Origin: Balanoglossus misakiensis
Lineage: Eukaryota; Animalia; Hemichordata
Length of the DNA stretch: 64,000 bases
Assembly: GCA_040954595.2 (NCBI GenBank)
Contig: CM082576.2
Location: 18,027,028-18,091,027 of the forward strand
Reading direction: 5' to 3'
The translations under genes and the position numbers were made by a program. Shown here piece after piece: positions 5,419 to 28,170 of this stretch (position 1 is its first letter; every line of letters begins with the position of its first letter). The notes under the pieces were generated by a model. It saw only the letters and a program-made list of their open reading frames with translations, did no database searches and was not told the origin of the DNA.

Positions 5419-5999
5419 CTTTCTCTTTTTATTTTTGCCTTTGTGCTTAATTTCTTTACTCTCATTGTATTGATGTATTCAACTTGTTACAGATGTGATA
5501 AGATTCCTTCAGATTATTCAAGTACAGTATCAAAAGGATATGATCTGGAGTAAATGCTGTTGTGTTTCACTCAAGAACTCCTGTACAAATGGTCTCTGTA
5601 TTTCTCTAGGATGGATTATTTGATAAAACACCAAGAATAAATAAAATATATCTCTGTATGTTGTGAATATATATCTTGTGGCAGTCACACTAAGATAAAA
5701 GCAAGTACTCAAATCTTCCAATTTTCAAATATTTAATTGATTGTTATGATAGCAAGTGTGATTATTATAATAGTGAGCGTTCCATGACCCTTCCAACGGC
5801 CGAATGTGCAAATATGAGCCTTTCAACGGCCAAATATGCAAGTATGAGCCTTCAAACAGCAAAATATGAGCCTTCTAATAACCACTGCATTAGTCACTAC
5901 TATCGTGGCGTACTCCAGAATCACGAGAGAAATGTCCAAAAGAGCAAGATCGGTTTCCCCAACAACGCTGGACCAATCAATCAGAAAGTCATACGCGTC

Positions 6000-8900
6000 G
6001 CCGCAGCGGTGCAAATAAGAGATCCCTGCATCGCAGCGGTGCGAATAAGATTTCCCTCCCAAACAACGATCTGACCATTCTTTATTCACTCCTCGGCGAC
6101 AAAAACGTTTTATTACGGCCTAAATAATGACTTTTTCGCTCCTTGGTTGGTCATGCGGACGGAAAGACACGGTTTTAGCGAGTTTATCTTTCTCTCTGCT
6201 GAGCACTCCGTATTCAGACTTGCCCAAGTGAACCGCGACAAAAAAGGCCAAGTTTCCCTGCATGTTACTTATACCCGACAGATGAAAAAAGCAGCGTAGA
6301 TATTGAAATGAATTGGATTTATGAAAACGATAAAAATTACAATTATAATGTCGTTAAAAGTTCTCACAAAAAAAAGAAATAGAAAAAAAGTGGTCTCGAA
6401 CCAACATCAGTTGACACCCTCAGGTAAAAAGGTTAGCCTTCCTGAACCTTTGGCCATCACGATGTTTACTCGAAAAAGTCGGAAATTTTCCGCATTATAT
6501 TGCAGCATAACTCCAATGATCTTATTTGCACCGCAGCGGTGCAAATAAGAGTTCCCCGCACCGCAGCTGTGCGAATAAGAGTTCCCTGGCCCCGCAATGA
6601 TCTGACCGTTCTTTATTCACTCTTCGGCGACAAAAACGTTTTATTACGGCCTAAATAACGACTTTTTCGCTCCTTGGTTGGTCATGCGGACGGAAAGACA
6701 CGGTTTTAGCGAGTTTATCTTTCACTCTGCTGAGCACTCAGTATTCAGACTTACCCAAGTGAACCGCGACAAAAAATGGCCAAGTTTCCCTGCATGTTAC
6801 TTATACCCGATAGATGAAAAAAGCAGCGTAGATATTGAAATGAATTGGATTTATGAAATTGTTAAAATTTCAATTATAATGTCGTTAAAAGTTCTCACAA
6901 AAAATAGAAATAGTAAAAAAGTGGTCTCGAACCAACATCAGTTGACATCCTCAGGTAAAACCTTTCCTGAACCTTTCGCCATCACAATGTGTACTCGAAA
7001 AAGTCGGAAATTTTCCGCACTATATTGCAGCATAACTCCAATGATCTTATTTGCACCGCAGTTGTGCAAATACGAGTTCCCTGCACCGTAGCGGTGCGAA
7101 TAAGAGTTCCCTGGCCCCGCAATGATCTGACCGTTCTTTATTTACTCCTCGGCGACATAAAACGTTTTATTACGGCTTAAATAACGACTTTTTCGCTCCT
7201 TGGTTGGTCATTCGGACGGAAAGACAAGGTTTTAGCGAGTTTATCTTTCTCTCTGCTGAGCACTCCGTTATTCAGACTTGCCCAAGTGAACCGCGACAAA
7301 AAATGGCCAAGTTTCTCTGCATGTTTGTTATACCAGACAGATAAAAAAAGCAGCGTAGATATTGAAATGAATTGGATTTATGAAATTGTTAAAAATTACA
7401 ATTATAATGTCGTTAAAAGTTCTCACAAAAAAAAGAAATAGAAAAAAAGTGGTCTCGAACCAACATCAGTTGACACCCTCAGGTAAAAAGGTTAGCCTTC
7501 CTGAACCTTTGGCCATCACGATGTTTACTCGAAAAAGTCGGAAATTTTCCGCATTATATTGCAGCATAACTCCAATGATCTTATTTGCACCGCAGCGGTG
7601 CAAATAAGAGTTCCCCGCACCGCAGCTGTGCGAATAAGAGTTCCCTGGCCCCGCAATGATCTGACCGTTCTTTATTCACTCTTCGGCGACAAAAACGTTT
7701 TATTACGGCCTAAATAACGACTTTTTCGCTCCTTGGTTGGTCATGCGGACGGAAAGACACGGTTTTAGCGAGTTTATCTTTCACTCTGCTGAGCACTCAG
7801 TATTCAGACTTACCCAAGTGAACCGCGACAAAAAATGGCCAAGTTTCCCTGCATGTTACTTATACCCGATAGATGAAAAAAGCAGCGTAGATATTGAAAT
7901 GAATTGGATTTATGAAATTGTTAAAATTTCAATTATAATGTCGTTAAAAGTTCTCACAAAAAATAGAAATAGTAAAAAAGTGGTCTCGAACCAACATCAG
8001 TTGACATCCTCAGGTAAAACCTTTCCTGAACCTTTCGCCATCACAATGTGTACTCGAAAAAGTCGGAAATTTTCCGCACTATATTGCAGCATAACTCCAA
8101 TGATCTTATTTGCACCGCAGTTGTGCAAATACGAGTTCCCTGCACCGTAGCGGTGCGAATAAGAGTTCCCTGGCCCCGCAATGATCTGACCGTTCTTTAT
8201 TTACTCCTCGGCGACATAAAACGTTTTATTACGGCTTAAATAACGACTTTTTCGCTCCTTGGTTGGTCATTCGGACGGAAAGACAAGGTTTTAGCGAGTT
8301 TATCTTTCTCTCTGCTGAGCACTCCGTTATTCAGACTTGCCCAAGTGAACCGCGACAAAAAATGGCCAAGTTTCTCTGCATGTTTGTTATACCAGACAGA
8401 TAAAAAAAGCAGCGTAGATATTGAAATGAATTGGATTTATGAAATTGTTAAAAATTACAATTATAATGTCGTTAAAAGTTCTCACAAAAAAATAGAAATA
8501 GAAAAAAGTGGTCTCGAACCAACATCAGTCGACACCTTCGGGTAAAAGGCTAGCCTTCCTGAACCTTTCGCCATCATGATGTGTACTCGAAAAAGTAGGA
8601 AATTTTCCGCACTATATTGCAGCATAACTCCAATGATCTTATTTGCACCGCAGTGGACAAAAACGTTTTATTACGGCCTAAATAACGACTTTTTCGCTCC
8701 TTGGTTGGTCATGCGGACGGAAAGACACGGTTTTAGCGAGTTTATCTTTCTCTCTGCTGAGCACTCAGTATTCAGACTTGCCCAAGTGAACCGCGACAAA
8801 AAAGGCCAAGTTTCCCTGCATGTTACTTATACCCGACAGATGAAAAAAGCAGCGTAGATATTGAAATGAATTGGATTTATGAAAACGATAAAAATTACAA

Positions 8901-11900
8901 TTATAATGTCGTTAAAAGTTCTCACAAAAAAAAGAAATAGAAAAAAAGTGGTCTCGAACCAACATCAGTTGACACCCTCAGGTAAAAAGGTTAGCCTTCC
9001 TGAACCTTTGGCCATCACGATGTTTACTCGAAAAAGTCGGAAATTTTCCGCATTATATTGCAGCATAACTCCAATGATCTTATTTGCACCGCAGCGGTGC
9101 AAATAAGAGTTCCCCGCACCGCAGCTGTGCGAATAAGAGTTCCCTGGCCCCGCAATGATCTGACCGTTCTTTATTCACTCTTCGGCGACAAAAACGTTAT
9201 ATTACGGCCTAAATAACGACTTTTTCGCTCCTTGGTTGGTCATGCGGACGGAAAGACACGGTTTTAGCGAGTTTATCTTTCACTCTGCTGAGCACTCAGT
9301 ATTCAGACTTACCCAAGTGAACCGCGACAAAAAATGGCCAAGTTTCCCTGCATGTTACTTATACCCGATAGATGAAAAAAGCAGCGTAGATATTGAAATG
9401 AATTGGATTTATGAAATTGTTAAAAATTACAATTATAATGTCGTTAAAAGTTCTCACAAAAAATAGAAATAGAAAAAAAGTGGTCTCGAACCAACATCAG
9501 TCGACACCTTCGGGTAAAAGGCTAGCCTTCCTGAACCTTTCGCCATCATGATGTGTACTCGAAAAAGTAGGAAATTTTCCGCACTATATTGCAGCATAAC
9601 TCCAATGATCTTATTTGCACCGCAGTGGACAAAAACGTTTTATTACGGCCTAAATAACGACTTTTTCGCTCCTTGGTTGGTCATGCGGACGGAAAGACAC
9701 GGTTTTAGCGAGTTTATCTTTCTCTCTGCTGAGCACTCCGTATTCAGACTTGCCCAAGTGAACCGCGACAAAAAAGGCCAAGTTTCCCTGAATGTTACTT
9801 ATACCCGACAGATGAAAAAAGCAGCGTAGATATTGAAATGAATTGGATTCATGAAAACGATAAAAATTACAATTATAATGTCGTTAAAAGTTCTCACAAA
9901 AAAAAGAAATAGAAAAAAAGTGGTCTCGAACCAACATCAGTTGACACCCTCAGGTAAAAAGGTTAGCCTTCCTGAACCTTTGGCCATCACGATGTTTACT
10001 CGAAAAAGTCGGAAATTTTCCGCATTATATTGCAGCATAACTCCAATGATCTTATTTGCACCGCAGCGGTGCAAATAAGAGTTCCCCGCACCGCAGCTGT
10101 GCGAATAAGAGTTCCCTGGCCCCGCAATGATCTGACCGTTCTTTATTCACTCTTCGGCGACAAAAACGTTTTATTACGGCCTAAATAACGACTTTTTCGC
10201 TCCTTGGTTGGTCATGCGGACGGAAAGACACGGTTTTAGCGAGTTTATCTTTCACTCTGCTGAGCACTCAGTATTCAGACTTACCCAAGTGAACCGCGAC
10301 AAAAAATGGCCAAGTTTCCCTGCATGTTACTTATACCCGATAGATGAAAAAAGCAGCGTAGATATTGAAATGAATTGGATTTATGAAATTGTTAAAATTT
10401 CAATTATAATGTCGTTAAAAGTTCTCACAAAAAATAGAAATAGTAAAAAAGTGGTCTCGAACCAACATCAGTTGACATCCTCAGGTAAAACCTTTCCTGA
10501 ACCTTTCGCCATCACAATGTGTACTCGAAAAAGTCGGAAATTTTCCGCACTATATTGCAGCATAACTCCAATGATCTTATTTGCACCGCAGCTGTGCAAA
10601 TACGAGTTCCCTGCACCGTAGCGGTGCGAATAAGAGTTCCCTGGCCCCGCAATGATCTGACCGTTCTTTATTTACTCCTCGGCGACATAAAACGTTTTAT
10701 TACGGCCTAAATAACGACTTTTTCGCTCCTTGGTTGGTCATGCGGACGGAAAGACACGGTTTTAGCGAGTTTATCTTTCACTCTGCTGAGCACTCAGTAT
10801 TCAGACTTACCCAAGTGAACCGCGACAAAAAATGGCCAAGTTTCCCTGCATGTTACTTATACCCGATAGATGAAAAAAGCAGCGTAGATATTGAAATGAA
10901 TTGGATTTATGAAATTGTTAAAAATTACAATTATAATGTCGTTAAAAGTTCTCACAAAAAATAGAAATAGAAAAAAAGTGGTCTCGAACCAACATCAGTC
11001 GACACCTTCGGGTAAAAGGCTAGCCTTCCTGAACCTTTCGCCATCATGATGTGTACTCGAAAAAGTAGGAAATTTTCCGCACTATATTGCAGCATAACTC
11101 CAATGATCTTATTTGCACCGCAGTGGACAAAAACGTTTTATTACGGCCTAAATAACGACTTTTTCGCTCCTTGGTTGGTCATGCGGACGGAAAGACACGG
11201 TTTTAGCGAGTTTATCTTTCTCTCTGCTGAGCACTCCGTATTCAGACTTGCCCAAGTGAACCGCGACAAAAAAGGCCAAGTTTCCCTGAATGTTACTTAT
11301 ACCCGACAGATGAAAAAAGCAGCGTAGATATTGAAATGAATTGGATTCATGAAAACGATAAAAATTACAATTATAATGTCGTTAAAAGTTCTCACAAAAA
11401 AAAGAAATAGAAAAAAAGTGGTCTCGAACCAACATCAGTTGACACCCTCAGGTAAAAAGGTTAGCCTTCCTGAACCTTTGGCCATCACGATGTTTACTCG
11501 AAAAAGTCGGAAATTTTCCGCATTATATTGCAGCATAACTCCAATGATCTTATTTGCACCGCAGCGGTGCAAATAAGAGTTCCCCGCACCGCAGCTGTGC
11601 GAATAAGAGTTCCCTGGCCCCGCAATGATCTGACCGTTCTTTATTCACTCTTCGGCGACAAAAACGTTTTATTACGGCCTAAATAACGACTTTTTCGCTC
11701 CTTGGTTGGTCATGCGGACGGAAAGACACGGTTTTAGCGAGTTTATCTTTCACTCTGCTGAGCACTCAGTATTCAGACTTACCCAAGTGAACCGCGACAA
11801 AAAATGGCCAAGTTTCCCTGCATGTTACTTATACCCGATAGATGAAAAAAGCAGCGTAGATATTGAAATGAATTGGATTTATGAAATTGTTAAAATTTCA

Positions 11901-13473
11901 ATTATAATGTCGTTAAAAGTTCTCACAAAAAATAGAAATAGTAAAAAAGTGGTCTCGAACCAACATCAGTTGACATCCTCAGGTAAAACCTTTCCTGAAC
12001 CTTTCGCCATCACAATGTGTACTCGAAAAAGTCGGAAATTTTCCGCACTATATTGCAGCATAACTCCAATGATCTTATTTGCACCGCAGCTGTGCAAATA
12101 CGAGTTCCCTGCACCGTAGCGGTGCGAATAAGAGTTCCCTGGCCCCGCAATGATCTGACCGTTCTTTATTTACTCCTCGGCGACATAAAACGTTTTATTA
12201 CGGCTTAAATAACGACTTTTTCGCTCCTTGGTTGGTCATTCGGACGGAAAGACAGGGTTTTAGCGAGTTTATCTTTCTCTCTGCTGAGCACTCCGTTATT
12301 CAGACTTGCCCAAGTGAACCGCGACAAAAAATGGCCAAGTTTCTCTGCATGTTTGTTATACCAGACAGATAAAAAAAGCAGCGTAGATATTGAAATGAAT
12401 TGGATTTATGAAATTGTTAAAAATTACAATTATAATGTCGTTAAAAGTTCTCACAAAAAAATAGAAATAGAAAAAAAGTGGTCTCGAACCAACATCAGTC
12501 GACACCTTCGGGTAAAAGGCTAGCCTTCCTGAACCTTTCGCCATCATGATGTGTACTCGAAAAAGTAGGAAATTTTCCGCACTATATTGCAGCATAACTC
12601 CAATGATCTTATTTGCACCGCAGTGGACAAAAACGTTTTATTACGGCCTAAATAACGACTTTTTCGCTCCTTGGTTGGTCATGCAGACGGAAAGGCGCGG
12701 TTTAGCGATTTTATCTTTCTCTCTGCAGAGCACTCCGTTATTCAGACTTGCCCAAGTGAACCTCGACAAAAAAATGGCCAAGTTTCTCTGCATGTTTGTT
12801 ATACCAGACAGATAAAAAACGCAGCGTAGATATAGAAATGAATTGGATTTATGAAAATGATAAAAATTACAATGAAAATGTCGTTAAAAGTTCTCACAAA
12901 AAAGAAATAAAAATAAAGTGGTCTCGAACCAACATCAGTCGACACCTTCGGGTAAAAGGCTAGCCTTCCTGAACCTTTCGCCATCATGATGTGTACTCGA
13001 AAAAGTAGGACATTTTCTGCACTATATTGCAGCATAACTCCAATGATCTTATTTGCACCGCAGTGGACAAAAACGTTTTATTACGGCCTAAATAACGACT
13101 TTTTCGCTCCTTGGTTGGTCATGCGGACGGAAAGACACGGTTTAGCGAGTTTATCTTTCTCTCTGCTGAGCACTCCGTATTCAGACTTGTCCAAGTGAAC
13201 CGCGACAAAAAATGGCCAAGTTTCTCTGCATGTTTGTTATACCAGACAGATAAAAAACGCAGCGTAGATATTACAATGAATTGGATTAATGAAAATGGAA
13301 AAAATTACAATGAAAACGTCGTTAAAAGTTCTCACAAAAAAAGAAATAGAAAAATAAAATGGTCTCGAACCAACATCAGTCGACACCTTCGGGTAAAAGG
13401 CTAGCGTTCCTGAACCTTTCGCCATCATAATGTGTACTCGAAAAAGTAGTAAATTTTCCGCACTATACTGCAG
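6000..13473. repeat. Tandem array of ~530-bp and ~441-bp units (left part, ~15 units)
   Basis: The anchor aaaacgttttattacggc recurs at ~6102, 6632, 7160, 7691, 8219, 8660, 9191, 9632, 10163, 10690, 11130, 11661, 12188, 12630 and 13070. Identical short ORFs repeat with it. Confidence 0.97.
6383..6463 (-). promoter_or_regulatory. tRNA-like Pol III internal promoter (A box, B box) plus oligo-T run; one per array unit (first copy given)
   Basis: Minus strand reads GA-TGGCCAAAGGTT ... GTT-GGTTCGAGACC-AC-TTTTTTT. A-box T at 6456, B-box G at 6402 (54 nt apart). No acceptor stem. Confidence 0.45.
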
Positions 13474-13734
13474 TGTAGTAAATACCGGTTACTAACCTGG
13501 TAGGTACTACGGGTTGTCTTATTCCGGGCCACAGAGTTTTGCTTGGTACTGGTCGTCAGTCCTGGTAGCGTGTTGCTCTGCTGCTGGTCCGGGTCGTTCT
13601 CGTTCTGATAGTTGAGAAACGTGGGTAAAAACCAGTAGCACAGGTGCAGGGCATTCCGTAGTGCAATTACGTCAGAGGCGTCCCACCTGTACAGCAGGGC
13701 GCCACCAACGGCCAGAAGCCCACAAATTACTACA
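13474..13734 (-). repeat. 3' LTR (261 bp)
   Basis: Identical by eye to 40627-40887; TG...CA ends. Confidence 0.97.
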
Positions 13735-13755
13735 CTCTTCCCACTTTTCTTTTTT
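13735..13755 (-). other. Polypurine tract
   Basis: Minus strand AAAAAAGAAAAGTGGGAAGAG directly precedes the 3' LTR. Confidence 0.85.
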
Positions 13756-13856: not shown

Positions 13857-16631
13857 CTAGTGATATAGACGTCTGGTGTTACGGACAGTTGCTTCAAGAA
13901 GGTGCACTAGATCAGTCCCCCTTGAGTTAGCAACAGCCACGGCCACATCCCCTATAAGAGCTGGAGTACTGGTTACATCACGAGGGCCCCCAAGATACGG
14001 CGAATCTGTTTCGATTAACAGACGCTCGATGGGCACCTCCTTCAAAGCTCGAATCTGGCAACGGTCAAATTTGGTGGTCGTGATGGAGAAACCGAAGTAA
14101 CAATTCTTGAAGCGCTTCGACCACCTTTGAACAGTGTTGACCGTACCAGTAAAATTGTGGATATGTATTTTCTGCCGTGGCGAACACCATTCCTGTACTA
14201 ATTGCAATGCTTGGCAATGCACATCTGACCCATACTGGTCCCCATATGGCCCTCTAATGTGCAGGACTAAGGGTTTCTCAGGCACACACATGGCAAGTGC
14301 TCGAGAGAGAACCCTGTCTTGGGCGCTCCAGTATTTACTTGGCTCTGTGCGGTCGAGACCCACCTCCCCAAGGGCGGCTACCTGTGTGCTCGTGACAAGC
14401 CGCTTGAGGGCTTTAAAGGTCCTTTCGTCGGCTCTTGGAGCTTTCCTTGGATGGATCCCGATGGCGATACTCCAACCTTTGGGCCGGTTCAAATCCATGG
14501 GGTAGTACTCCGGATCGCAAAAGACCTCGACGCCCCCAATGATGTTGACAGGAAAATTCGCCCTTGGGCCATTATGCCAGTTAACCAAAGCTACTGATGT
14601 TGCAGGGCAGTCCCTACCGCGAAATCGAGCCAGTGTTCGGTCAAGATGAAAGTGGGAATCCATGGCTTCCAATAGACTGTCTGATTGTAGATAATCCTGT
14701 GCTGTCCCCTGTAACTCTTGCTCAATAGGTTGGTCAGCTTGGGATTCTATTGTAATTGAGTCCAGTATCACGTATTCAACCGGGAGCTCAATTTCTGATG
14801 GTGGGATCGGGACTGAGTCCTGTATCACGTGATCAACAGGTTGCTCAGCCTGTGGGATCCTTTCAGTACAGTCTAATGAAATTTCTTTCTCTACTTGATC
14901 ACCCCATGAGATTCCCTGGGACGTGGAGTCCTGTATCACGGATTCAACAGGTTGTTCCATTTCTCCCATACCTATAATCATTGCCAAGTCTTGGTGTGCG
15001 TCCTCCACATGGATCGGACTATTTCCTGAGGCTACAGGTGAATATGTGATCTCCCTCGCATGAGTTGGAGATTGGAACTCACCTTCATTTTCGGAAACCA
15101 TTTCCTGGTCGACACAGGAGCCAGTCTCCCCCCTAGGGGTAGGTGACCGCGGCTCGCCGTGATCTGCCTCAGGATTCTCTGTTACCATTTCCTGGTCTGC
15201 ACTTGGCGAGCAGGAGACAGTCTCCCCCGTAAGGGTAGGTGACTGAGGATTTCCGTGCTCTGCCTCGGGGCCTTCCAGTTCCGGCATCGGATGACATGGT
15301 GAATGCGAGGTGATCTCTGCCACTGGGGTGGGAGACCGGGACTCACCATGCTCCCTTGGGGGTACCACGGGTTGGAAGGCTTCCCGCTGCTCCTCAGTCA
15401 GGTGCGAAAGGAGGATGACGAGAATCCTCCAATGCAGCAGGACGGCTGGTGAATTCGGTGGGTGCAGCGAGAATCGTCGTGGTACGGCCCATCCGCTGGT
15501 CTGGCACAGTCGCTTCATCATCAGACAGTTGGCTTCGGTGAGCGCAGAGGATGCTGGGACTTCTTCCAAGTGATGTTGCAGGAAGTACTCCAGCAGCTTG
15601 GTGACAGTTCCTCTGGGGCCCAAAACCCAGCCCGCCAGCTTCAGCAGGGCATGAGTAACATCAGCTGTCTGCATGATAAGGGGGTTTTCCTGTAGACGGG
15701 GGTCGATATGGTAGAAGAAGCAGTGCCGTTTGAGACGTTTGGAGGTCTGCCCACATCCTGGAATAGGGCAGGTACATGAGCGGCTGTTGGTAGATTTTCT
15801 GCTTCTTCTACCCCTACAGGAATTGGTCGCCGCAGTCGTGGTGGTCTTCGACTTCGGCACCCCCTTCGGCTCCTGTGCCATCCATACAACGGAGCGTCGC
15901 CGCCGCTTCCCGTCACGCTGTATGGTCACCTCCAAACGAGATTCCTCACCCCGCTCTCGCTTCTTTGGTTTCGTGGCCGCCATCTTCTGCGTTCCTCTCC
16001 GTGGCTGGCTTGATGTCTTTCGTGGTGGCTCACGGGGGGTACTTTTCCGTGGCTCTGCCAGGGGTCGCCGCGCAGCTACTGCTGAGTACAATTCACGGGG
16101 CGCTGCAGAAGATGGTTGTGTCGATGTTCTTCGGGGTGAGGATGCCCGCGATGTTGAGGCGATGGAGGTGACTGGGTCCCTGCCTTGCATGGTGTCTTCT
16201 ACTACAACCGTCTCCCCCGACTTCTTCAGCAGGTGCTTGACAGTCGGGAGATCGGGCTGCGTCTGTAGGCGAACATCACGGCAGGGTCCAGACGTGACGG
16301 TACTGCTGGGACGGGACTTCCGTTGCGGGATCCTGTTCTTATGCGGATCCCGATGGAGAAGATGCTTGTACAGCCATTCCTCGGAGAAGATCACATCGGC
16401 TTCGCGGCGTGTAGTCTCCACCCAATGCCAATGGCCTCTCCGAGATGCTAGTTGATACTGGCGTAACAGCATCCTCTCCTTTTCAGGGAGCGTGACCTTG
16501 GCCAGCCCGATGCCGTAGGTGAGGTCGAGTGGTGGAAGCAGAATCCGTTTCCGGTCTGCCTCCACCACTTCTTGCCAGGTCATATGCTGCTTCTTAGGGC
16601 GAGGTCCCCCGCGATACCGCTGGGAGTCCAT
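13857..16631 (-). CDS. ORF3 (~924 aa): basic/disordered N-terminus, C2H2-like zinc finger, acidic repeat linker, C-terminal TatD-family metallo-nuclease
   Basis: TatD motifs DSHFHLD, IGIHP, ALGEVGLD, PLVLHIR, HIHNFTG, YFGFS, LLIETDSPY (13857-~14665). Zinc finger CPIPGC...HCFFYH at ~15706-15777. First ATG at 16631, just after the pol stop. Confidence 0.9.
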   Translation of the reverse strand: MDSQRYRGGPRPKKQHMTWQEVVEADRKRILLPPLDLTYGIGLAKVTLPEKERMLLRQYQLASRRGHWHWVETTRREADVIFSEEWLYKHLLHRDPHKNRIPQRKSRPSSTVTSGPCRDVRLQTQPDLPTVKHLLKKSGETVVVEDTMQGRDPVTSIASTSRASSPRRTSTQPSSAAPRELYSAVAARRPLAEPRKSTPREPPRKTSSQPRRGTQKMAATKPKKRERGEESRLEVTIQRDGKRRRRSVVWMAQEPKGVPKSKTTTTAATNSCRGRRSRKSTNSRSCTCPIPGCGQTSKRLKRHCFFYHIDPRLQENPLIMQTADVTHALLKLAGWVLGPRGTVTKLLEYFLQHHLEEVPASSALTEANCLMMKRLCQTSGWAVPRRFSLHPPNSPAVLLHWRILVILLSHLTEEQREAFQPVVPPREHGESRSPTPVAEITSHSPCHPMPELEGPEAEHGNPQSPTLTGETVSCSPSADQEMVTENPEADHGEPRSPTPRGETGSCVDQEMVSENEGEFQSPTHAREITYSPVASGNSPIHVEDAHQDLAMIIGMGEMEQPVESVIQDSTSQGISWGDQVEKEISLDCTERIPQAEQPVDHVIQDSVPIPPSEIELPVEYVILDSITIESQADQPIEQELQGTAQDYLQSDSLLEAMDSHFHLDRTLARFRGRDCPATSVALVNWHNGPRANFPVNIIGGVEVFCDPEYYPMDLNRPKGWSIAIGIHPRKAPRADERTFKALKRLVTSTQVAALGEVGLDRTEPSKYWSAQDRVLSRALAMCVPEKPLVLHIRGPYGDQYGSDVHCQALQLVQEWCSPRQKIHIHNFTGTVNTVQRWSKRFKNCYFGFSITTTKFDRCQIRALKEVPIERLLIETDSPYLGGPRDVTSTPALIGDVAVAVANSRGTDLVHLLEATVRNTRRLYH

Positions 16632-16666
16632 GATCTGTACAAGAAAGAATAAGAGACATGATGAGG

Positions 16667-19600
16667 TTACACTGAAACTGCGCTTATTTCGCTTGGTTTG
16701 CAGTTGGGACAAGAAAACAGTGCTTTTTTCTTAATTTCGGTTGGTGTAACATTCACACACGCTCCATGAAACCATTCATAGCAATAATCACACTGGATCA
16801 TAAGTTTCCCATCATCAGGTTTCCTGCAAAGGCAATATACTTCACCCATTCCTGCGCTGTCCTTAAGTAAGGTCTTCCTAAAGGTTACTATCCAGCGAGG
16901 AAGCTCTTTATCCTGGCAAAGCTTTAGCCGATCGTGATGGGCGGTCCAAACCTCTCTTCGCAATTTGATGCGGAAGAGATAGGGTGTGATTTTGGTGATG
17001 ATGACCCCTGGTCCTTTCCAAGGTGGGCATAGTTTCCGGCATTTGCCTTTAGTGGTTCCGGTATCCAACAGATATACTGGATCCCCTACCTTGAAGGACT
17101 GCTTGTTCACTCGGAGGTCGTAATCACGTTTCATTCTTTCTTGTGTGGTCTTCAGTATTTCCCGCGCTGTCTCATGAGAATTCGTTATGGCCTCCTTCAA
17201 TTCATACACATACCCCTCATGAGATTGGTCAGTGTTTGTCCTGGGAGGCCGGAATACAAGATCAGCGGGCTGGTTTATTTCCCTACCTAACATCATCCGG
17301 TTGGGCGTAAAACCAGTGCTGCGGTTGACTGAAGAGCGGAGAGCTCCGGCGATCTGTGAGAGAAATTTATCCCATTCTTTCTGTGACTTGATGTAGCATC
17401 TGATTGCGTTCATCAAAGTGCGATTCTGCCGTTCCGCCTGGCCATTAGCAGATGGTCTGTAAGAAGTGGTTCTTGTTTTATGGATATGAAGAATCTCACA
17501 AATCGCTGAAAATAACTGACTTTCAAAGTTTCTTCCCTGGTCAGTGTGAATTTCAAATGGATACCCGAACCTGGTAAAGAATTCAGCTACTGCGGCGTGT
17601 GCTGTTTCCTCAGCATTTTGTGTTGGCAGCGGTATACATTCTACCCACTTGGTGAATTGATCTACCATTACCAGGATATACTCATTACCCCGAGGTGTCT
17701 TGGGTAACGGCCCTAGGAAATCCAAGTGAACTCGTTCCATCGCTGCCCCCGCATGAAATAGGGTCAGCTGATGTCGGTGGTGTCTGTGTGCTTTCTTGTT
17801 GTGATTGCAAATTGCACACATTGTGACATACTTGCGAATGTCGTGGGACATCCTATACCAATGGTATTTGGTCCTGATTCTGGCTTGAGTGCGCTGTATT
17901 CCCTGGTGCCCACAAGATGGAATATCATGATTCAACCGTATAACTTCATCTTTCATGGTATTAGGGATGACTAGTTGTATGGTGTTTTCATCTGTGGCCG
18001 ACTTTCTCCACAGTACTCCCTCCTCAATGAAGTATAGGTCACGGTTGATCCAATAATTCTTTGCTGCAGGGCTGGAGAGTCTCAGCTCTCCTTCCTCAGG
18101 AACTTTCCCAGTTTCAAGCCATGTGATGAGAATCCCCAGTGTTTTATCAGTCTGCTGTGCCTGTTGGTATTCTTTGTGAGAATATCCTAGGATGGCTGTT
18201 CCCAGTTTAGTGGAATCCTCTCTGGATAGTATGCAGACTTGTACAGGATCCGGAAAGTGGGAAATTTCGAGGTTCGAATGAGGCACGTCGATTAGTTCAT
18301 CCTGGACTGTGTCACTGGTGATTCCGCAGCAAGTTAATAGACCCAAGTTACCTCCAGGGTCCCATGGCCAGGTCTCTTCATCTTGAATTGCTGGTTGTAT
18401 TCGTGGGTTCATGATACCGGTACATTGGTTCACCACATATGGCCCTTCGGTTTGGTGGAGTTGGCTGTTCCCGTGTTCGTTTCTGGGTTCAGCCATGGTC
18501 AGGGGAATTACATCATCCACCTCCTTGATGAACGGGCTCCAGTTTCGATGTGCTCTGCTGCAATAGTTGCATCCCCCGCAAGGTAAGGATTCCAATTTTG
18601 TTCCATGCTCAAAATTGGTGCAGGCACTTTGCTCGGGTAATCTTGACAGGGAGTCGGCGTTGATGTGTTGTTTTCCTGGTCGGTGTTGCACAGTAAAGTT
18701 GTACTGGCTTAGTTCTTCTAGCCAGCGAGCTAATTGGCCTTGTGGTTCTTTGAATCGTATTAGCCATAGCAAACTGTGATGATCTGTCCGTACCAGAAAT
18801 TTGTTACCAAGCAAGTAGTATCGAAACTGCCGGGTGAACCTTACGACTGCCAGCAATTCTTTTCTTGTGGTGCAGTACCGTCTCTGTTCAGGTGTCAGGG
18901 CATAACTTCCATAAGAAATTGTTCTCTCCTTGCCGTTCTGTATCTGGGATAACTCAGCTCCGATGGCAAAGTCTGAGGCATCCGTGTCTAGAATGAAGTT
19001 ATCCTTTGTATTGGGCAAGGTCAGAACAGGGGCAGCGGTGAGTGCTTTCTTGATGTCCTCAAAAGCTTGATGTTGCTCATACCCCCAGGCGAATGGTTTC
19101 TTCCCGGTTACACTGTACAGAGGTACCGCTAACTTGGCATAATCCTTGATGAAGGCGCGATGGTAGTTCGCAAATCCTGCAAATTTTTCCACGTCCTTCG
19201 TGTTGATAGGGATTGGCCATTCTTGGATCATCCGAATAGATTGATCTTCAAGAGATATTCTGTTTCTACCAACTTTCCTACCCAGGAAACTTACTTCCTG
19301 TTGGAATAACTCACACTTTCTTGGCTTGAGTTTCAGTTGGTACTTCCGTAGTCGTTTGAAGACTTCCCGGAGATTTTTAAGGTGTTCTTCGAAGCTTGAT
19401 CCGAGCACCATTATATCATCCAGAAATGCCAGTACGATGTCCCAAGTTAGGCCCCTTAGTACTAGGTTCATCACTCTGGAGAAAGTAGCAGGTGCGTTGC
19501 ACAGACCAAACGGCATTCGGGTAAATTCGTACAAACCGTATTTGGTGGTGAAAGCCGTTTTCTTGCACTCGGGTGGATTAATACTTATCTGCCAGTATGC

Positions 19601-21058
19601 CGAGTTGGCGTCCAACTTGGAGAACCATAGACATCCTGATAGAGTGTCCATACACTCCTCCACCAATGGCAGCGGAAAAACGTCCTTTACGGTGATGTTG
19701 TTTAGGGCTCGATAATCCACACACCAACGCACGCTTGCATCTCGTTTTCGCACTAGAACTGGTGCCGAAGCCCATTCGGAGATTGATGGTCTTATAACTC
19801 CGGCATTCAGCATTTTCTTTAAGTGGGCTTCTTCTTCCCCTGCAAAACACATTGGAGTGCGCCGTAGACGTTGCTTTATTGGTGGATTGTCTTTTGTGTC
19901 GACGCTATGTGTGATTGCAGTGAAATTTCCCAGATCAAATTCGTCCTTGGCGAAAACATGACTGCAGGATCTTTCAAACAGATTTCCTAAATGTGAAGGT
20001 AGCCCGCCTACCGGCTGAGGGCGTACTTCAGTCCTCTGTTGGATGTCAGGTGATGGGACGGTGATCACCTCCACTTCTGTAGCTGATGCGATAGGATCCT
20101 TGCTCTTCAGAGTTATATAATTCTCCGTCGGGTTGACTAAACAAACCTTAGGTGATTGTTCCCCCGAGTGAAGTGTCCTGGGCATCATTACTTTCAATCC
20201 CTGGGTTGGTTCTACCAAATAGTCGGTTAGATCCGTATCGAGTAAACAGGATATTCTGACCACACTATTCGGTGGGATGATTGTCCGTCGCTTCAAAGTT
20301 ACCTTTGCCACTTTTGGTGAATGATCCCTCTGTCCAAGGGTCATAGGTATGTGTTCCTCCCCCAAATGGAGCCAGTTGTTACTCATGTTGATGGTTGCTC
20401 CATTTGCTTGTAGGAAATCAACTCCCAGTAGCATTTCGTCGCCTATTGGGGCTACGTATATATCGGCATTGAAGACGGCACGTCCCAGCTGGATGTCAAC
20501 GGGTCCGACCAGGTTGGCTTTCATGGTTAACTGTCTTCCAGCTGTTTGCATGGTAACTTCCCGCAATATTGGAGGTTTTACTCGCAGACTGTTGTACAGT
20601 TGGTCAGAGATAATAGTGACTTCTGCGGCGGTATCGATGATAGCGGTAGCGGACTGGTCTCCAATTTTTGCTGGGATGCTATACATTGAACTGGACACAA
20701 GTTGGTTAATGACAACCATAGGCATGTCATTAGCTTCGGATGTTGCCATACTGGTCTTTGACGATTTTGTCTCTTCCACTGTTGAGTTGGTCACATCTGC
20801 GCAATGTGTACCATCATCAGTTGGAGTTGGTATAGTCGTTGTATACACATCTGCACAATGTGTATTGACATCAAGTGTTACCGATTCAGCTGATGGCGAT
20901 GGCACGTCAATATTACAGTTGCGATCGCCCTCCGTGGAAGCGTTGAGGCCGTAGGTTATGGGTTGTTGGGTCAAACTTTGGCCTCTGGGCTTGACCCTTT
21001 GGTGTTTAATGGACTGGCCGGCGCTGTTTCCTTCTTTTCCGATGTTCCATGGGGACAT
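16667..21058 (-). CDS. pol: Pol polyprotein: aspartic protease, RT, RNase H, integrase, C-terminal PHD finger
   Basis: IIDTAAEVT (PR); VRWCVDYRALN, MPFGLCNAP, AFLDD (RT); LDTDAS, TDHHSL (RH); H-x6-H...CAIC, DFLGP, TDQGRNF, NGQAERQN (IN); YCLC...CDYCYEWFHGAC...CPNC (PHD). 1463 uninterrupted codons. Confidence 0.97.
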   Translation of the reverse strand: MSPWNIGKEGNSAGQSIKHQRVKPRGQSLTQQPITYGLNASTEGDRNCNIDVPSPSAESVTLDVNTHCADVYTTTIPTPTDDGTHCADVTNSTVEETKSSKTSMATSEANDMPMVVINQLVSSSMYSIPAKIGDQSATAIIDTAAEVTIISDQLYNSLRVKPPILREVTMQTAGRQLTMKANLVGPVDIQLGRAVFNADIYVAPIGDEMLLGVDFLQANGATINMSNNWLHLGEEHIPMTLGQRDHSPKVAKVTLKRRTIIPPNSVVRISCLLDTDLTDYLVEPTQGLKVMMPRTLHSGEQSPKVCLVNPTENYITLKSKDPIASATEVEVITVPSPDIQQRTEVRPQPVGGLPSHLGNLFERSCSHVFAKDEFDLGNFTAITHSVDTKDNPPIKQRLRRTPMCFAGEEEAHLKKMLNAGVIRPSISEWASAPVLVRKRDASVRWCVDYRALNNITVKDVFPLPLVEECMDTLSGCLWFSKLDANSAYWQISINPPECKKTAFTTKYGLYEFTRMPFGLCNAPATFSRVMNLVLRGLTWDIVLAFLDDIMVLGSSFEEHLKNLREVFKRLRKYQLKLKPRKCELFQQEVSFLGRKVGRNRISLEDQSIRMIQEWPIPINTKDVEKFAGFANYHRAFIKDYAKLAVPLYSVTGKKPFAWGYEQHQAFEDIKKALTAAPVLTLPNTKDNFILDTDASDFAIGAELSQIQNGKERTISYGSYALTPEQRRYCTTRKELLAVVRFTRQFRYYLLGNKFLVRTDHHSLLWLIRFKEPQGQLARWLEELSQYNFTVQHRPGKQHINADSLSRLPEQSACTNFEHGTKLESLPCGGCNYCSRAHRNWSPFIKEVDDVIPLTMAEPRNEHGNSQLHQTEGPYVVNQCTGIMNPRIQPAIQDEETWPWDPGGNLGLLTCCGITSDTVQDELIDVPHSNLEISHFPDPVQVCILSREDSTKLGTAILGYSHKEYQQAQQTDKTLGILITWLETGKVPEEGELRLSSPAAKNYWINRDLYFIEEGVLWRKSATDENTIQLVIPNTMKDEVIRLNHDIPSCGHQGIQRTQARIRTKYHWYRMSHDIRKYVTMCAICNHNKKAHRHHRHQLTLFHAGAAMERVHLDFLGPLPKTPRGNEYILVMVDQFTKWVECIPLPTQNAEETAHAAVAEFFTRFGYPFEIHTDQGRNFESQLFSAICEILHIHKTRTTSYRPSANGQAERQNRTLMNAIRCYIKSQKEWDKFLSQIAGALRSSVNRSTGFTPNRMMLGREINQPADLVFRPPRTNTDQSHEGYVYELKEAITNSHETAREILKTTQERMKRDYDLRVNKQSFKVGDPVYLLDTGTTKGKCRKLCPPWKGPGVIITKITPYLFRIKLRREVWTAHHDRLKLCQDKELPRWIVTFRKTLLKDSAGMGEVYCLCRKPDDGKLMIQCDYCYEWFHGACVNVTPTEIKKKALFSCPNCKPSEISAVSV

Positions 21059-22130
21059 TCCCTCTTAAAATGGCCTATCTCGCCGCACCCATAGCAACCA
21101 CGGCTTCTCGGAGATGGGGATCGGTACCTTGATGTCTGCTGCGTTGTCACCACTTTGGTTAATTCGGCCAGTTGGGTGGTGACAGTCTGCAAAGTTGCGC
21201 TGATTGCCGACATCTGCGTCTCCAGCCTCGACATCCTCCCCTGCATCTCAGTTCCTCCGTCTTTGCTTCTCGGGCGGATGGGAGCTCTTTCAGGAGAGGG
21301 TGATTGTTTTCGCTCGTACCTGGAGACAGATCGTGCTTCGATGTTGGCTTTCGGGTATTCCGGATCAGGACTTACAAATCGTACTTCCCGCCTCTGCGAT
21401 CGGATGCCATAGATTGCTTGATGATTATACTGGAATCTTTTGACAGTATCGATCGCTGCTTCGATGGAAGTTGGACGCTGATTTGCTGCCCATTGGCCTG
21501 CTTCTCGATCACAACATCCTTGGCAAAAGCGCATCACAGCTTGAAGCTCTATGGTGGCATCGCTGCTTTCTTGAAATGCCTGCATCGCAAGTGAATAAAC
21601 CCTGTCCGCCCATTCTTCTAATTTCTCCTCGGTGTTTTGTCGAATCTGGGCGAACTGAAGCTGACTGGATTCTGGAATCTCTTTCAAGCCGAATCGTTTC
21701 TCCAGTTTTTTGAGCAGCTCGTGATAGCTGACGTCTGCGTTTTTCTGGAGGATCCTGGTATAAACTTCACTTGCTTTCCCCTCTAAACACCAGCACAGAT
21801 AATTTTTGCATTCATTGAATGACATGTCCTGCATCTCGGCAAATTTCGTGAATTTTACCTGATATGCCTGCCAGTTTCCGGAGCCATCGTAGATTAGCGT
21901 CCTGGGAACTGACATTGGGATGTGACGATGACTTGATCTGTCCATCCGGTTATCATGCTGGTAGTAGGGTTGAGTTCTGGGAGGAGCGAATTCTGTTGGA
22001 TAATGGCCATCATAATAATCCGGTGATGCACCCGCTCGTGGTCTGGACACATTCACCCGTGATGGACGATAATTCTGCTCATCTTCAGGCCAGGTCGCAT
22101 ATCGCTGTTCATCGCGAACACTTCGTGGAT
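20971..22130 (-). CDS. gag: Gag, C-terminal part (capsid-like region and CCHC zinc knuckle)
   Basis: YDGSGNWQAY...LEGKASE...LEKRFG...QIRQ..EKLEEWA and CYGCGEIGHFKREC. The first residues of the listed ORF (MHKPGLSSCA) come from the CACTA end. Confidence 0.93.
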
Positions 22131-22998
22131 ATGCACAGGATGAAAGCCCAGGTTTATGCAATGCTTAAAGTTGGTATAAATATGATTAAAGCTGTTCTTG
22201 CAATCATCTTTATGCAGCATAAAGATATTCATTTATACATCTTTATGCAACTCTATAAATTGGTATAATGGCTTACCACAAATAATCACCTTTATGCACT
22301 CTCATAAGGGTGAATAATTCATGTACACCTTGCATCACATTTATGCATTCTAATAAAGGTGAATAAAAGGATGAATTTCTATACACCTAGCGTCACGTTT
22401 ATACAGCTTTATGTCAGAATGATCAGAATATTTGCTTTGGCTTCTGATTCTCATTTCTCCTTTTGGAATATTCACTTTATCCACAGTGAGTTTACGAATG
22501 TTGGGGGAATAAGTGTCATTAACAATGAAAGACTTATACCTCCTTTGTCCAGTACACTTATTGTTTCATGTATAACTAAAGGGTAGAATATATGTTAGTG
22601 ATAGTTCTTTTCTGTGGCCAGCTTTGTCTTCAGCCAATCTTTTCATTCCTGCACACGTACCAGTACACTCCACCACCGTCAAATAGATCACACATACACA
22701 AGCTATATATACATGCAGTGGGACATTGTCATGAATTCTATGATTTTTTATTACTATAAGTACTAGTAACTACTATTTACAATATAATGAAAAATTTATT
22801 AAACTAGAAAGTAAAAAAACTGAAAGAATAACCTTTACGAACTAAAATACGAACTTAAATAAAAATCACAAACACAAGTAAAAACAATTCTAAAGTAATT
22901 TCAAATGTCATTAAAAATGAAAAGTCAAGTAGAAATATTTAGTTAAAAATAGAAAAACAAAATAAATAAACACATTATAAAATGAAGTACAATATCAA

Positions 22999-25900
22999 TC
23001 AGTGGGGACTAGTACATCCCTCCTCCAGAGAACCTGTGGTTCCAGAAGAAGACGCAGAATCATCTGGACTTAACCCAGACGCAACCCTGACTGCCCAATC
23101 CTCTGGGTAGTCAGGCCGCTCCCTGGAAGAGGGGGGTCCATCTGACCTGGGAAGGCGAAGCTGGCGCTGCTTTGCCGATAGATGTCCATTAACTGTTTTT
23201 TGCTTTTACGCAACTTTTTCCTTTCCCAGGTCAGAGGACGTCTTATGTATTGCTTGATCTTCCCCTCATCATCAAAATCGCTCTCTTCCGAGGAGATATA
23301 CTCAGCTGTTAGTACGCGTTTAATTTTCTCCTTGTCCTCTTCAGGCCAGTCAACCGATGTCAGGGAGGACTGAAGCTGTTTGAGTTTCTGAAAATGAACA
23401 ACATAGGATTTGTCAATAAAAAATCAACGTAGAGCTCATATTTAACAAGATCCTATTGCCATCATTGGATTTGTAATTGTTTATATATAAAAAATCTCTA
23501 ACAAAAAAGACAAGAATATTACTCAACGAACCCAATTGTTACATTAACAGATGGAACTTTCGCAGTCACCTAACTGGTACATACAACAGTATTAGACATA
23601 AATTTGAAGCTACTCACCTCTCTTTTACGCCCCTGTCGACGGCATGTTTGTTTGTGGGCCTCTGTCTTTCCTTGGCTGTTCAACCGATGTTTGTTCTTTT
23701 GCCCCCGAAAAAATGTTCTGATTGCTTCTGTAATAGGAATTAACAGAAAATTAGCAAGCAGCCTAAGTTGTTTTTACTTTTGTATGTGTCATGTTAGCAT
23801 CTCCTTAAAGCTTCAACTTTAGAAGGAATGTGAGCATATTATAAGTAAATATGTCCAGCTCAAGTAAGTAGAGGACTTTCCTTTGATCCAACCATGGCGG
23901 TACTAAGAGTGCCTCCATGATCCAACGCAAAGGGTTGTGATTTTGCAATATTAATTAAAAGTATCAGATATTTAATGTTATATCATAATCAAAATCCATT
24001 TACCTTTGGCCTCGAGTGTGTTGATGTCATCACATCTTAACTCCTGCAGCAAGATTTCACATGATTGCTGGTTCTCCACAGCATCAAATCTATAAAAAAG
24101 AGAGAAATTTCATGAACCATTTAATTATTTTTTGTCAAGTTATCCTAGGCTAAACAGATGAAGTATGTGGCTTCTAGAATTCTGGCCCCAACATGTTCCA
24201 GCCTTGGTCGATGCGGCCTCTCTTTTCAATGACCCACATCAATGTGGCCCCTAAACCCAAGTTTCAGTGTCCTATCACTATATAGTGTTGTGTCATTTCA
24301 GCCCCCTGACGGATGCAGGTATAATTATATAGATTTATTGTATCTTAAATAAGTAAACTTAATTCTTGTGTCAAAAAAACTATTGTATGGGGCATGCAAA
24401 GTCATCAGCACAATTCAAAGATAAAAACATAATCCACTGGCTTCTGTGATGGAAAAATGATCAATTTAATTTAACAGGAACATTTTATTACTAACATATC
24501 ATTGTGTAGTTGTGAATAGAAAGAATGGCATTACACGTATAAGTTATCAAATTCACGCTGAATGGGAAGGCAATTTTGGACCGTGAGAAATTTCATTCTT
24601 ACAACTTGGAATGTATATCTTTAAATTGATGAAGACCTTTACAACTGAAAACTTGAATAACATACATGTAGGGATAAACTGTGTTTACGCCATCTTGAAA
24701 ATTTGCAGTGCATTATGGGTCAATTGAGTTCCGGTTGAGGGGGAGTAGCGTCTACAACCTTACCTATCCAATTTTCCAGCGGTTTAGTCAGATTTTCTTC
24801 AAGTAACGTTAGTAGTAGTAGTTACTTGAAGAAAATCTGACCAAACCGCAGGAAAAAATGGATAGGTTGTAGGCGCTACTCCCCCTCAACCGGAACTCAA
24901 GTGACCCATAATGCACTGCAAATTTTCAAGATGGCGTAAACACAGTTTATCCCTATACAAAAGGTCCACCTGTACTTCACAACATTAAAAATAGAGAAGA
25001 AATGTAAATACCTCTCAGTGACATTAAGACCAGGAAAGTCATCCCTCTGCCTCAGTAAGTTGTACTTTGCACGGACTGTTCTCTGGGGTGAAAATATAAA
25101 GTACTATGTTAGTAAAATTGTTAAATCATTTTTATTTAAAACATTCTGACAGTTCATTTGTTTGCTTCAATCACCCTATCAATCAACATTTATGGCATAG
25201 ATTAGCCTGGTCACCATACCCAGTGTGTTGTAGATAGACTCACACACATCGAAAACACGCTGGGTATGGTGACCAGGCTAGGCATAGATAGGCCTAAGTG
25301 CATATTTCTTGAAATGTATCTTTTGCACAGCACTGGCCACTATCAAAATTTGCATTGTAAAGGTTACTAAAACAAGCATTTATGCAACATGTGGTTCCGC
25401 ACAAAAAGGTCAAAATGTTATGCATATTTTAGAAATTAACCACAAAAATACTGAAAAAGTAGCCCAAGTGTCACACTGGGTAAAATTAAACACCTGACAT
25501 TGTATGTGTCCACCTGACACCTGGCCCCAAACAGATAGGTTGGAGGTGTTAATCCTTAGTTACACAAGCTCAGGTCTGGCCTGAAAAAAGCGTCTCAAAT
25601 CTGAAGCATTTCATTCACACATATTTATTCCCTGTGTGACCACCATATAATTAAAGCTTGTACCCCATTATAACCAATGGTCACAACAAGAGACACTGAC
25701 GCACAGATTGTTAAACAATGCTATTGTAATGCTATTGTTTGGTAGCTTTGTCAGGAATGTGTAGCATTAATGACATATGCAAATTCAAACTGTGATACTA
25801 GTATTGACCTCTGACATTTATCAGGTGACGACTGAGTATTTCAGTGTTCAATTTATAAGTTCTCCTAAAATCTTTCAAACATAAGAGCCCTTCCACACCG

Positions 25901-26549
25901 AGTCGCAAAATGTACGCGATGTTAAAAAGAAATGTACGCGACGGCCGTGTCAGGCTACCCCTATTTGACGACCTCAGGAAGCTTAATTATGCGTACCAAC
26001 AAGCGTCACGCTTTATGTGCTTGCGAAGCTTCAGTCCCCCGGTCCGTAGCTGGAAATAGCAGGTGCGTGTCTCGGTAAAGACCTACACACACAGGCACGC
26101 GAAAAGATCGCTTCGTGATCGGTCGCGAAATACGCGAGAGCCAAAAATTTCCTGTCACGAAAATAACCTGTTTTACAGTACCTTATTATTATACCACGTA
26201 CTGATCACCTTCCATTGAGACCCACCATAAAGCTACAACCACAGACCTCCATGCTAATACCGAGGTCTGCTCCGATCGGCTTATGGCCCCGTAGGACAAC
26301 TTCAGGTTGCCCGTGTGTCCCATTGCATTAATGTTAAACAACGGACGATTAACTATGGTGCGAGAGTTGTATTTAAAAAGAAAGAATCATACTCACAGAC
26401 ACGATGTTGCTAACATGTATCTTGGATTTTCTGCGGGCTGCTGATGTTGCGTGAAGCGCTGAGAGTTTTTCTTCTATTACCTTTAGGGACATCTGCATTG
26501 CCGGTACTTGTTGAGCCGCGGAGCAACCACAAAACGTATTTTCATTCAT
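22999..26549 (-). CDS. Spliced second gene of the CACTA element (5 exons; acidic SSEESD / RPLTWE type, resembling C14orf93-like proteins); frameshift in the last exon
   Basis: GT-AG exons ~26549-26397, ~25082-25012, ~24089-24005, ~23727-23618 and 23387-22999 join in phase: MQMSLKVIEEKL...RTVRAKY...AIRTFFRGQK...EYISSEESD...RRPLTWERKKL; GPPSSR...DWAV follows in a shifted frame. Confidence 0.65.
24669..24955. mobile_element. ~287-bp near-perfect palindromic (foldback) MITE in an intron
   Basis: tagggataaactgtgtttacgccatcttgaaaatttgcag... mirrors ...ctgcaaattttcaagatggcgtaaacacagtttatcccta. Confidence 0.85.
25203..25280. mobile_element. 78-bp MITE with 21-bp TIRs and a 9-bp TSD
   Basis: TAGCCTGGTCACCATACCCAG...CTGGGTATGGTGACCAGGCTA, flanked by GGCATAGAT on both sides (25194-25202, 25281-25289). 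Confidence 0.85.
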
Positions 26550-28170
26550 AGTTGAAGACGATGCAAAGAACTTCTGAGTTTGTTGTAATAAACGACATGG
26601 TATTTATACTGCTGAGGAAAGGTTGACTTTTCAAAATTCCCGCAAAAGTCAAAGGCAGCAACTTTGATTGGTTGTAAGAATATCCCCGAACTAATAACCA
26701 ATCAACGTTAAATTCACAATCACGTGTCTCAAGGATTCCGTGCCTGTACAATAAACTTGATAAACATCCGGTGTTTTTAATGTCAACATGCGTCGATCAG
26801 ACGCTACAGGACGCTTCTGAAAGACGCTACGAACATCATACTGTGCTTCACTGACTGTGCTTCGAGGTTTCTCACTCCTGAGTCCAATGATCGAAACGCA
26901 AACGTGGCTCAAGGTACGTATCCTTGTTAAATTGTTGATATTTGTCTGGAGGAGTGGGCATCATTATCTTTGGACCCGGGCCGGGCGCAGTAGGCGTACG
27001 ATCGCGTGAGACGCACGCGGAGCCGCGACTGATGTAGCCGATGTAAAACAAAACTAAACCCCTGTCCGTTTACCTTTTAGCTTTAAATTTGATAAGTTCT
27101 TGCCGCGGATCAAAGACTAGATATCGCAAAGCTTTGATTAGGTGGTTGTCGGTAAATATTTATTGATAGTAAGTGGCAAAATCGCCATCCGAACATATGT
27201 TTAACAATCGCATTCTGCCCTTTCCGCTTCGTTAGGGGTGGACCACTTGATTTCAGAGGGTGAAGACAAAATTGTCGAAAGTTTTTTTTTTTTAGCCGGG
27301 AAAAAAAATGTTCGTGCGGGCTAAGTAAAAAACAAACAAGTATGATTCCGACAAAGCTTTGAAAAACCTGGTTGAACAATACCAAAAAATTAAATGCTCA
27401 ACAGTCGCCATTTGGGAAATAATTCCTCCAGCTCCCATGAATCAAATGGTCTACCCCTTACAAACCTTTCTACTATATACTGCGGTTGCATCAGTCGGGG
27501 TTTCGAGTTCCAACTAAGCATGATTTTGATAGCCTCGGTCATGTGTGAGGCTTGTATGACACACATGATTAATTATAATATAATTTAAGGCAGCTAGTAA
27601 GTATATATGTCCAAAGATAGAGTCTAAATGTAGATACAGTGTATATGTACTCTGGAATGATCAACGTGTTAGGGTGTGTAAACTATGTGCATACGAGAGA
27701 CAATGCTGCATGGTTGAGTCAGACTGGAGTAGCAATGGCAGAATGCTCAGCTGCTTTTACTTGTACTTGCTGATGTAGCTTTACAGGAAAGCAATATATA
27801 TACTAGCACGTGGATATTGTGGTCTCAAATATGTGTCAACCAAGCAATTTTCCTCTTCAAATTTTACATAAGGATCATGATAATTAGAAAGAGTTGGCAA
27901 CAATAAGTAGAACATGTCTAACATTTTCTGAAGTTGTGTTTTGATAATTCAGTTGAATATCATACCAGTTGGTCGCATACTGAAATTAAATGTACAATGA
28001 CTTTTAACATTAACGTTTTTATTACTTCTGTTTCAACAGCAACTGCAATATTACAGCAAACCAGTTTCCTGTATCTGTCACCTGCACTTGGATTTTGACA
28101 GTAGCTTTATGTTTGCTTTTGAATGCCTCATATTCACCCTTGAGTGATTTACTCCCAAGACATTCATGAA

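Follow-up and report, generated by a model that had tools for sequence, protein, structure and literature searches.

A Ty3/Gypsy retrotransposon with a PHD finger of the H3K4me3-reader type at the integrase C-terminus and a TatD nuclease-type third open reading frame in Balanoglossus misakiensis

The window, a stretch of 64,000 nucleotides of Balanoglossus misakiensis DNA, contains a Ty3/Gypsy LTR retrotransposon with the domain order protease-reverse transcriptase (RT)-RNase H-integrase, encoded on the minus strand. Its two 261-bp LTRs, at 40627-40887 (5' LTR) and 13474-13734 (3' LTR), have TG...CA termini and are 100% identical to one another. A primer-binding site starting with TGGCG is located 2 nt from the 5' LTR (40607-40624), with similar starts in the related loci L002, L045 and L048, while a polypurine tract (PPT) directly adjoins the 3' LTR (13735-13755) and the element is flanked by a 4-bp target-site duplication, GCAG on the plus strand, at 13470-13473 and 40888-40891. 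The pol frame (16667-21064, minus strand) is stop-free over 1465 aa and codes for the protease, RT, RNase H, an integrase with H2C2, core and GPY/F-type modules and, at its end, a PHD finger, as assigned from the ORF and Pfam; the protease-RT spacer comprises 228 aa, as against 241-397 aa in 52 relatives. The gag gene is encoded in two pieces on the same strand. The upstream piece (38879-39457, ATG at 39448) carries a helix-hairpin-helix (HHH_3) at the Gag N-terminus, scoring 34 bits against a cut-off of 27, and the downstream piece (20971-22164) codes for a capsid-like PNMA/Retrotrans_gag region and a CCHC knuckle. They are split by a nested EnSpm/CACTA-like insertion of ~16.7 kb (22148-38900, with an approximate right-hand boundary), which contains a Transposase_21 ORF (29847-32540) and inverted TTTATGCA subterminal repeats, and from the end of which the opening codons of the downstream gag piece derive. 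In a relative without this interruption (P0019), the helix-hairpin-helix, gag, pol and PHD finger occur in the same order in a single protein. The identical LTRs together with the interrupted gag indicate that the window copy is young but broken; the EnSpm/CACTA-like insertion came while the host LTRs were still identical, and both events are therefore recent.

The window further contains Helitron-like ORFs (Helitron_like_N, DUF6570) at 909-5478, with a 63-bp tandem repeat in 17 copies at 3659-4732, a second, distant Gypsy gag-pol at 46191-48710 (RT at most 35% identical to any row of the tree described below) and RT fragments at 43129-44937 and 48698-49549. Long inverted repeats of 424 nt at 99% (56136-60446) and 92 nt at 98% (24669-24955) are likely non-autonomous DNA transposons. 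Contigs from the sequencing runs X1 and X2 match only the final 35-48 nt of the LTR (window 13687-13734), which suggests that related families share this LTR end.

The C-terminus of the pol product consists of the GPY/F-type WKGPG motif of the integrase (17006-17020, minus strand), followed by ...VYCLCRKPDDGKLMIQCDYCYEWFHGACVNVTPTEIKKKALFSCPNC and a further ten residues. A sequence-only reading of this DNA had recognised here a full Cys4-His-Cys3 finger in frame after WKGPG, with a Tyr before the first Cys, a Met and a Trp, all of which is borne out, and had assigned it to the H3K4me3-reader type, proposing chromatin-guided integration. The finger (16700-16840, minus strand, within 16690-16846) extends from Val1409 (nt 16840) to Cys1455 (nt 16700), beginning 62 residues past the start of WKGPG, and is identified by its ligand pattern, Pfam, PDB matches and a predicted model. 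It matches Pfam PHD (PF00628) over profile positions 1-47 of 47 with 34.6 bits against a cut-off of 24 (E 2e-8), and 63 distinct PDB sequences at E<=0.001. The top match is PHF2 (E 9e-14), with PHF8 (2e-12), CFP1 (3e-12) and Spp1 (8e-12) next and KDM7A, PPS and DIDO thereafter; the four top-ranking proteins are H3K4me3 readers. An AlphaFold model built from a 59-row alignment has a pLDDT of ~90-96 across the finger, and its PHD part superposes on the BPTF, PPS, PHF2 and DIDO fingers at 0.9-2.2 A over 48-57 columns, the structures used including H3K4me3-bound PHDs. The finger is not a chance match, and on the predicted model its PHD fold is virtually certain.

The cage positions of the window copy are filled by Tyr1410, immediately before the first Cys, Met1422 and Trp1431. 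In PHF13 the equivalent Met and Trp are cage residues, the mutation of which abolishes H3K4me3 binding (PMC4915813). Asp1426, after the third Cys, occupies the usual H3R2-binding site, where 74 of 78 relatives have Asp or Glu and where the equivalent acid of BPTF contacts H3R2 (PMC8166343). The fourth cage position is Asp in the window copy and in 43/78 relatives, as it is in CFP1 in the PDB match alignment, and aromatic (Trp or Tyr) in 23/78. The stretch expected to line the H3 Ala1 pocket reads KKKAL in the window copy and is unusually basic, although the aromatic Phe1450 is present; position 1447 is Lys, as opposed to Ile, Leu or Met in 71/78 relatives, suggesting that the window copy may bind less well than the rest of the family.

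With the integrase tail and finger as query, 96 relatives were recovered, 78 of which have a precomputed PHD; the relatives were collected by words shared with a query that included the finger, which biases the set towards similar fingers. The complete Cys/His pattern is found in 74 of the 96, and among these, selected by a pattern that did not demand Met, Trp or Tyr/Phe, the Met and the Trp are each present in 74/74 and Tyr or Phe precedes the first Cys in 73/74. Mean column conservation is 0.65 for the finger and 0.67 for the GPY/F module, as against 0.34 for the intervening linker, across 78 rows; since the motif used to choose these rows includes the Met and Trp, the fair cage count is that of the 74-row set. 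The relatives are only ~41-56% identical in the finger region. In a FastTree phylogeny of RT-RNase H (119 rows, none of them a named reference element), one branch with an SH-like support of 99 unites 88 rows, 79 of which have the finger; the other nine are predicted proteins that end or go out of frame either ahead of the finger or inside it, and no clean losses (0) were observed. A single PHD-bearing row (P0085) is placed in the sister group, to which the finger-less elements L007, L008 and L058 belong. The named finger carriers are molluscs (Ostrea, Mytilus, Haliotis and Nucella). Of 71 related loci fetched, 27 were assigned to the PHD family, with L066, L070 and L071, where a PHD occurs without integrase or TatD and which are probably host genes, left out; 13 of the loci tested for TatD come from one assembly and represent different families, not independent hosts. 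The finger is a conserved, family-wide trait of a widespread clade. Sequence, predicted fold and conservation across the family all lend good support to its placement among PHDs of the H3K4me3-reader type, and the family's fingers are predicted, with good probability, to bind H3K4me2/3.

Several family members are entered in databases under other names. P0075, a Mytilus integrase-PHD protein related to window 16667-17400, is named 'nucleosome-remodeling factor subunit BPTF' at its source, likely a mis-annotation due to the finger. L043-L060 and L067, as well as the proteins P0062, P0086, P0127, P0138 and P0149, occur in bacterial metagenome-assembled genomes (Sedimenticola, Ca. Thiodiazotropha) and are probably animal host DNA that was binned with symbionts and labelled bacterial TatD or integrase. 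As members have been entered as host BPTF or bacterial TatD genes, their annotation can be corrected once the family is recognised.

Between pol and the 3' LTR lies a third ORF (ORF3; 13857-16730, minus strand) of 957 aa stop to stop, its first Met at 16631, 36 nt past the pol stop. The C-terminal part of its product is a TatD nuclease domain of group II (13860-14675, minus strand; Pfam E 6e-36). The HxH motif, which is the mark of the group II TatD enzymes, for which 3'-5' exonuclease and AP-endonuclease activities are described (PMC10085689), is found in ORF3 together with the Glu, His, His and Asp of the group II ligand set. All eight active-site residues checked (HxH and six more) are present in the window copy and are kept in 20/20 intact rows, a set which includes the window and leaves out L003, L006, L011 and L069 (stop in TatD or partial TatD), and the same positions are kept in 62-64 of 64 database relatives. 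TatD is encoded downstream in 22 of the 27 PHD-family loci; it is present in all 21 loci with at least 2.5 kb past the finger, and the five loci lacking it end within 1.3 kb. The domain is matched by 191 clusters (50% identity) at E<=1e-30, and every named carrier of the ORF3 TatD is a bivalve. Upstream of TatD, ORF3 codes for a conserved domain (15351-15800, minus strand) comprising a C2H2-like finger (C321, C326, H336, H341) and a helical part with an NSPAxLxHWR-type motif, which co-occurs with TatD in 63/64 database relatives and is confidently modelled (pLDDT 91). It matches no Pfam family, a PDB sequence search returned nothing below E 0.6 and Foldseek nothing at E<=0.001, the best VIA comparison being to RAG1 (Z 3.6, rmsd 4.3 over 73 residues); these fold searches establish no kinship and do not demonstrate a new fold. 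Within the element, the intact TatD ORF3 is the less expected component. The sister-group Gypsy element L007 (6156-9000) has a TatD ORF3 but lacks a PHD, its integrase ending in an ordinary basic tail; this suggests that the nuclease ORF predates the finger or can be separated from it.

The element has inserted into a satellite array (6060-13473, resuming at 40888-42411) with units of ~441 and 531 bp. On the minus strand, 18/18 units have a perfect match to the B-box consensus of RNA polymerase III (Pol III) promoters with a T run after it, as against 0.24 matches expected in the window, the copy closest to the element being at 13361-13371. The array shows no CpG depletion (observed/expected 1.24-1.32 vs 0.62 for 52-64 kb). 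The units also carry an A-box-like word and a 31-nt palindrome, and the satellite is possibly a tandem tRNA- or SINE-derived Pol III unit. The LTR starts ~42 bp upstream of a unit that ARAGORN calls as tRNA-like (13349-13431); from the unit length, the chance of landing 10-60 bp upstream of a B-box unit is estimated at ~1 in 10. A true tRNA was rejected as the identity of the unit: ARAGORN calls only 1/18 units, with an atypical anticodon, and Rfam recognises no tRNA even at E<=10. The units fold with z-scores of -2.2 to +0.4. The related loci are for the most part collapsed repeat contigs that lack flanks; no tRNA gene was found in the 29/29 scanned, and the satellite's B-box word is absent from 71/71. 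The contigs of three DNA runs from one sample, searched with both LTRs, resolved no further flank of the exact LTR. One X2 contig covers the LTR for 30 nt and the same satellite flank for 20 nt (depth 719 vs 2953 for the PPT-side contig); it falls below the 31-letter bridging rule, its depth gives no copy number, and it was not counted as evidence. Tandem satellite DNA is usually regarded as silent, and Pol III units carry H3K4me3. The single satellite site neither confirms nor refutes targeting, and is not an obvious promoter; an element that seeks promoters would be expected to land elsewhere.

We propose that the finger would stay on the mature integrase once the protease has processed the polyprotein, and would there bind the free H3 N-terminus bearing K4me2/3. 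Such a tether would keep the integration complex at chromatin that is active and open, and bias new copies towards nucleosomes next to promoters and to Pol III-type units. The product of ORF3 would be an active TatD nuclease, which likely serves to trim, repair or clear nucleic-acid intermediates arising in the cycle of the element. That an integrase can be steered by a PHD tether is shown by an engineered PHD-LEDGF fusion, which retargeted HIV-1 integration, with 50.3% occurring within 2.5 kb of start sites compared to 3.8% otherwise (PMC4176367). From the position, cage and conservation of the finger, we judge the chances to be evenly balanced that it serves as an H3K4me reader which tethers the integration complex and biases its landing sites; that the finger affects target choice is given the same even odds. 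At the one insertion site available, the undepleted CpG and the B boxes of the array speak for the tether; the satellite nature of that site and the basic Ala1-pocket stretch of the window copy speak against it. The processing or clearing of nucleic-acid intermediates is a putative role of TatD. More tentatively, a large animal Gypsy clade may mirror the chromoviruses, with an H3K4me3-reading integrase that lands by active promoters or Pol III units and an active TatD of its own which, along with the new zinc-finger domain and the HhH-tipped Gag, processes or protects DNA there.

The finger may instead read H3K4me2/3 but work after, or apart from, the choice of site, for example in the retention of chromatin contact through division or, with the ORF3 protein, in protecting the expression of a new copy. 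The conserved cage would fit such a role, as would the fact that the sole known site is nonetheless a satellite, and other authors have left room for it: both targeted insertion and selection are allowed for the Chlamydomonas element Gypsy-7a (bioRxiv 10.1101/2022.06.16.496473), and a function unrelated to integration for CopiaMBD (PMC6673714). The finger is, however, situated on the integrase C-terminus, where the targeting domain of the chromoviruses resides, and the engineered PHD tether does redirect integration (PMC4176367), so that a role confined to later steps appears rather doubtful. A second alternative is Ty3-like targeting, with the element specifically seeking out Pol III-type (B-box) units and the finger reading the active marks beside them. 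The position of the LTR just upstream of the tRNA-like unit and the perfect B box and T run of every satellite unit speak for such targeting, but only one site is available and its 18 units are copies of one sequence; the single ARAGORN call, the silence of Rfam, the folding z-scores and the lack of tRNA genes in the related loci, most of which are without flanks, further weigh against it, and Ty3-like targeting is considered unlikely.

A non-histone partner with an H3-like N-terminus, either a processed protein of the element itself or a host factor, is less probable still. H3K4me3-type PHDs can bind non-histone mimics, the PHF2 PHD binding the N-terminal mimic of VRK1 (PMC8166343), but no candidate was found here and all close structural matches have histone H3 as their usual ligand. 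That the finger is a passenger from a host gene without a current role is highly improbable: nearby Gypsy elements (the sister-group L007, L008 and L058) do persist without it, but its ligands and cage are kept among distant relatives while the linker drifts, a conservation pattern that largely refutes this reading.

The preferred reading, that of an H3K4me-reading tether on the integrase, builds on the earlier suggestion that PHD fingers of transposons guide insertion (PMC6673714; bioRxiv 10.1101/2022.06.16.496473), an idea which becomes directly testable in molluscs with existing genomes. PHD fingers in Gypsy polyproteins are already in print for Chlamydomonas. Neither a TatD-bearing LTR element nor a description of the clade was found in the openly accessible articles searched, and Repbase Reports, subscription journals, figures or supplements may describe the family. 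The main text of PMC5890265 makes no mention of a PHD for KnitGypsy-Dnmt3, and that of a survey of mollusc LTR elements (PMC6238403; MolGy1-16, C-clade, CsRN1, Cigr-1) has no mentions (0) of PHD or TatD. Troyka elements were rejected as relatives, being defined by a 3-bp duplication and CG...CG termini as opposed to the 4-bp duplication and TG...CA termini of the element, and Selgy was rejected as a lead as it is a plant lineage. A squid TatD match in the literature is the host TATDN2, and PMC6962438 and PMC9998398 proved irrelevant.

Among the known systems, Gypsy-7a_cRei of Chlamydomonas likewise encodes a Gypsy polyprotein with a PHD that is proposed to influence insertion, and its intergenic insertions are 2.6 times the expectation (bioRxiv 10.1101/2022.06.16.496473). 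It differs in being from a green alga and in that its PHD is listed, in a figure legend, between RNase H and integrase rather than after the integrase, while the accessible text of the report mentions no TatD ORF and does not state the cage type. Ginger1-9_HM of Hydra (PMC2836005) similarly has a Gypsy-integrase-like transposase with a C-terminal PHD; it is, however, a DNA transposon, the PHD occurs alongside an Ulp1 protease, and it is one of 16 families tabulated there. The host PHDs of PHF2, PHF8, KDM7A, CFP1, Spp1, DIDO/PPS and BPTF share the ligand spacing, cage and predicted fold of the window finger, with 39-52% identity over the aligned finger, but are located in chromatin enzymes and their binding has been measured, whereas the window finger is on an integrase and its binding is predicted from sequence. 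As regards ORF3, the bdelloid LTR elements Juno and Vesta also carry a captured enzyme between pol and the 3' LTR, although these enzymes are a DEDDy exonuclease and a GDSL esterase rather than a group II TatD with a zinc-finger-like domain, and TatD has no mentions (0) in the main text of that report (PMC5408684). The HxH and Glu, His, His and Asp ligands are common to ORF3 and the group II enzymes YcfH, YjjV and TATDN2/3 (PMC10085689), from which the ORF3 TatD differs in being retrotransposon-encoded and in following a long N-terminal region.

The closest parallel in design is with the chromoviruses, which, as both the sequence-only reading and the literature state, bear a chromodomain at the C-terminus of their integrase; PHDs are encoded by many retrotransposons (PMC6673714; bioRxiv 10.64898/2026.05.21.726589). 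No chromodomain was detected in the element by Pfam at E<=0.01, the PHD occupying that position instead. The predicted ligand is an active mark as opposed to the heterochromatin mark of the chromoviruses, and the window element adds the TatD ORF3 and the HhH-Gag. If the tether is real, a natural integrase that reads an active-promoter mark would represent the opposite strategy to that of the chromoviruses, which steer into silent chromatin, an active-mark tether having so far been shown only with the engineered PHD fusion (PMC4176367). By domain content the element is not a chromovirus, but we infer that it would work as a reader tether in the chromovirus style.
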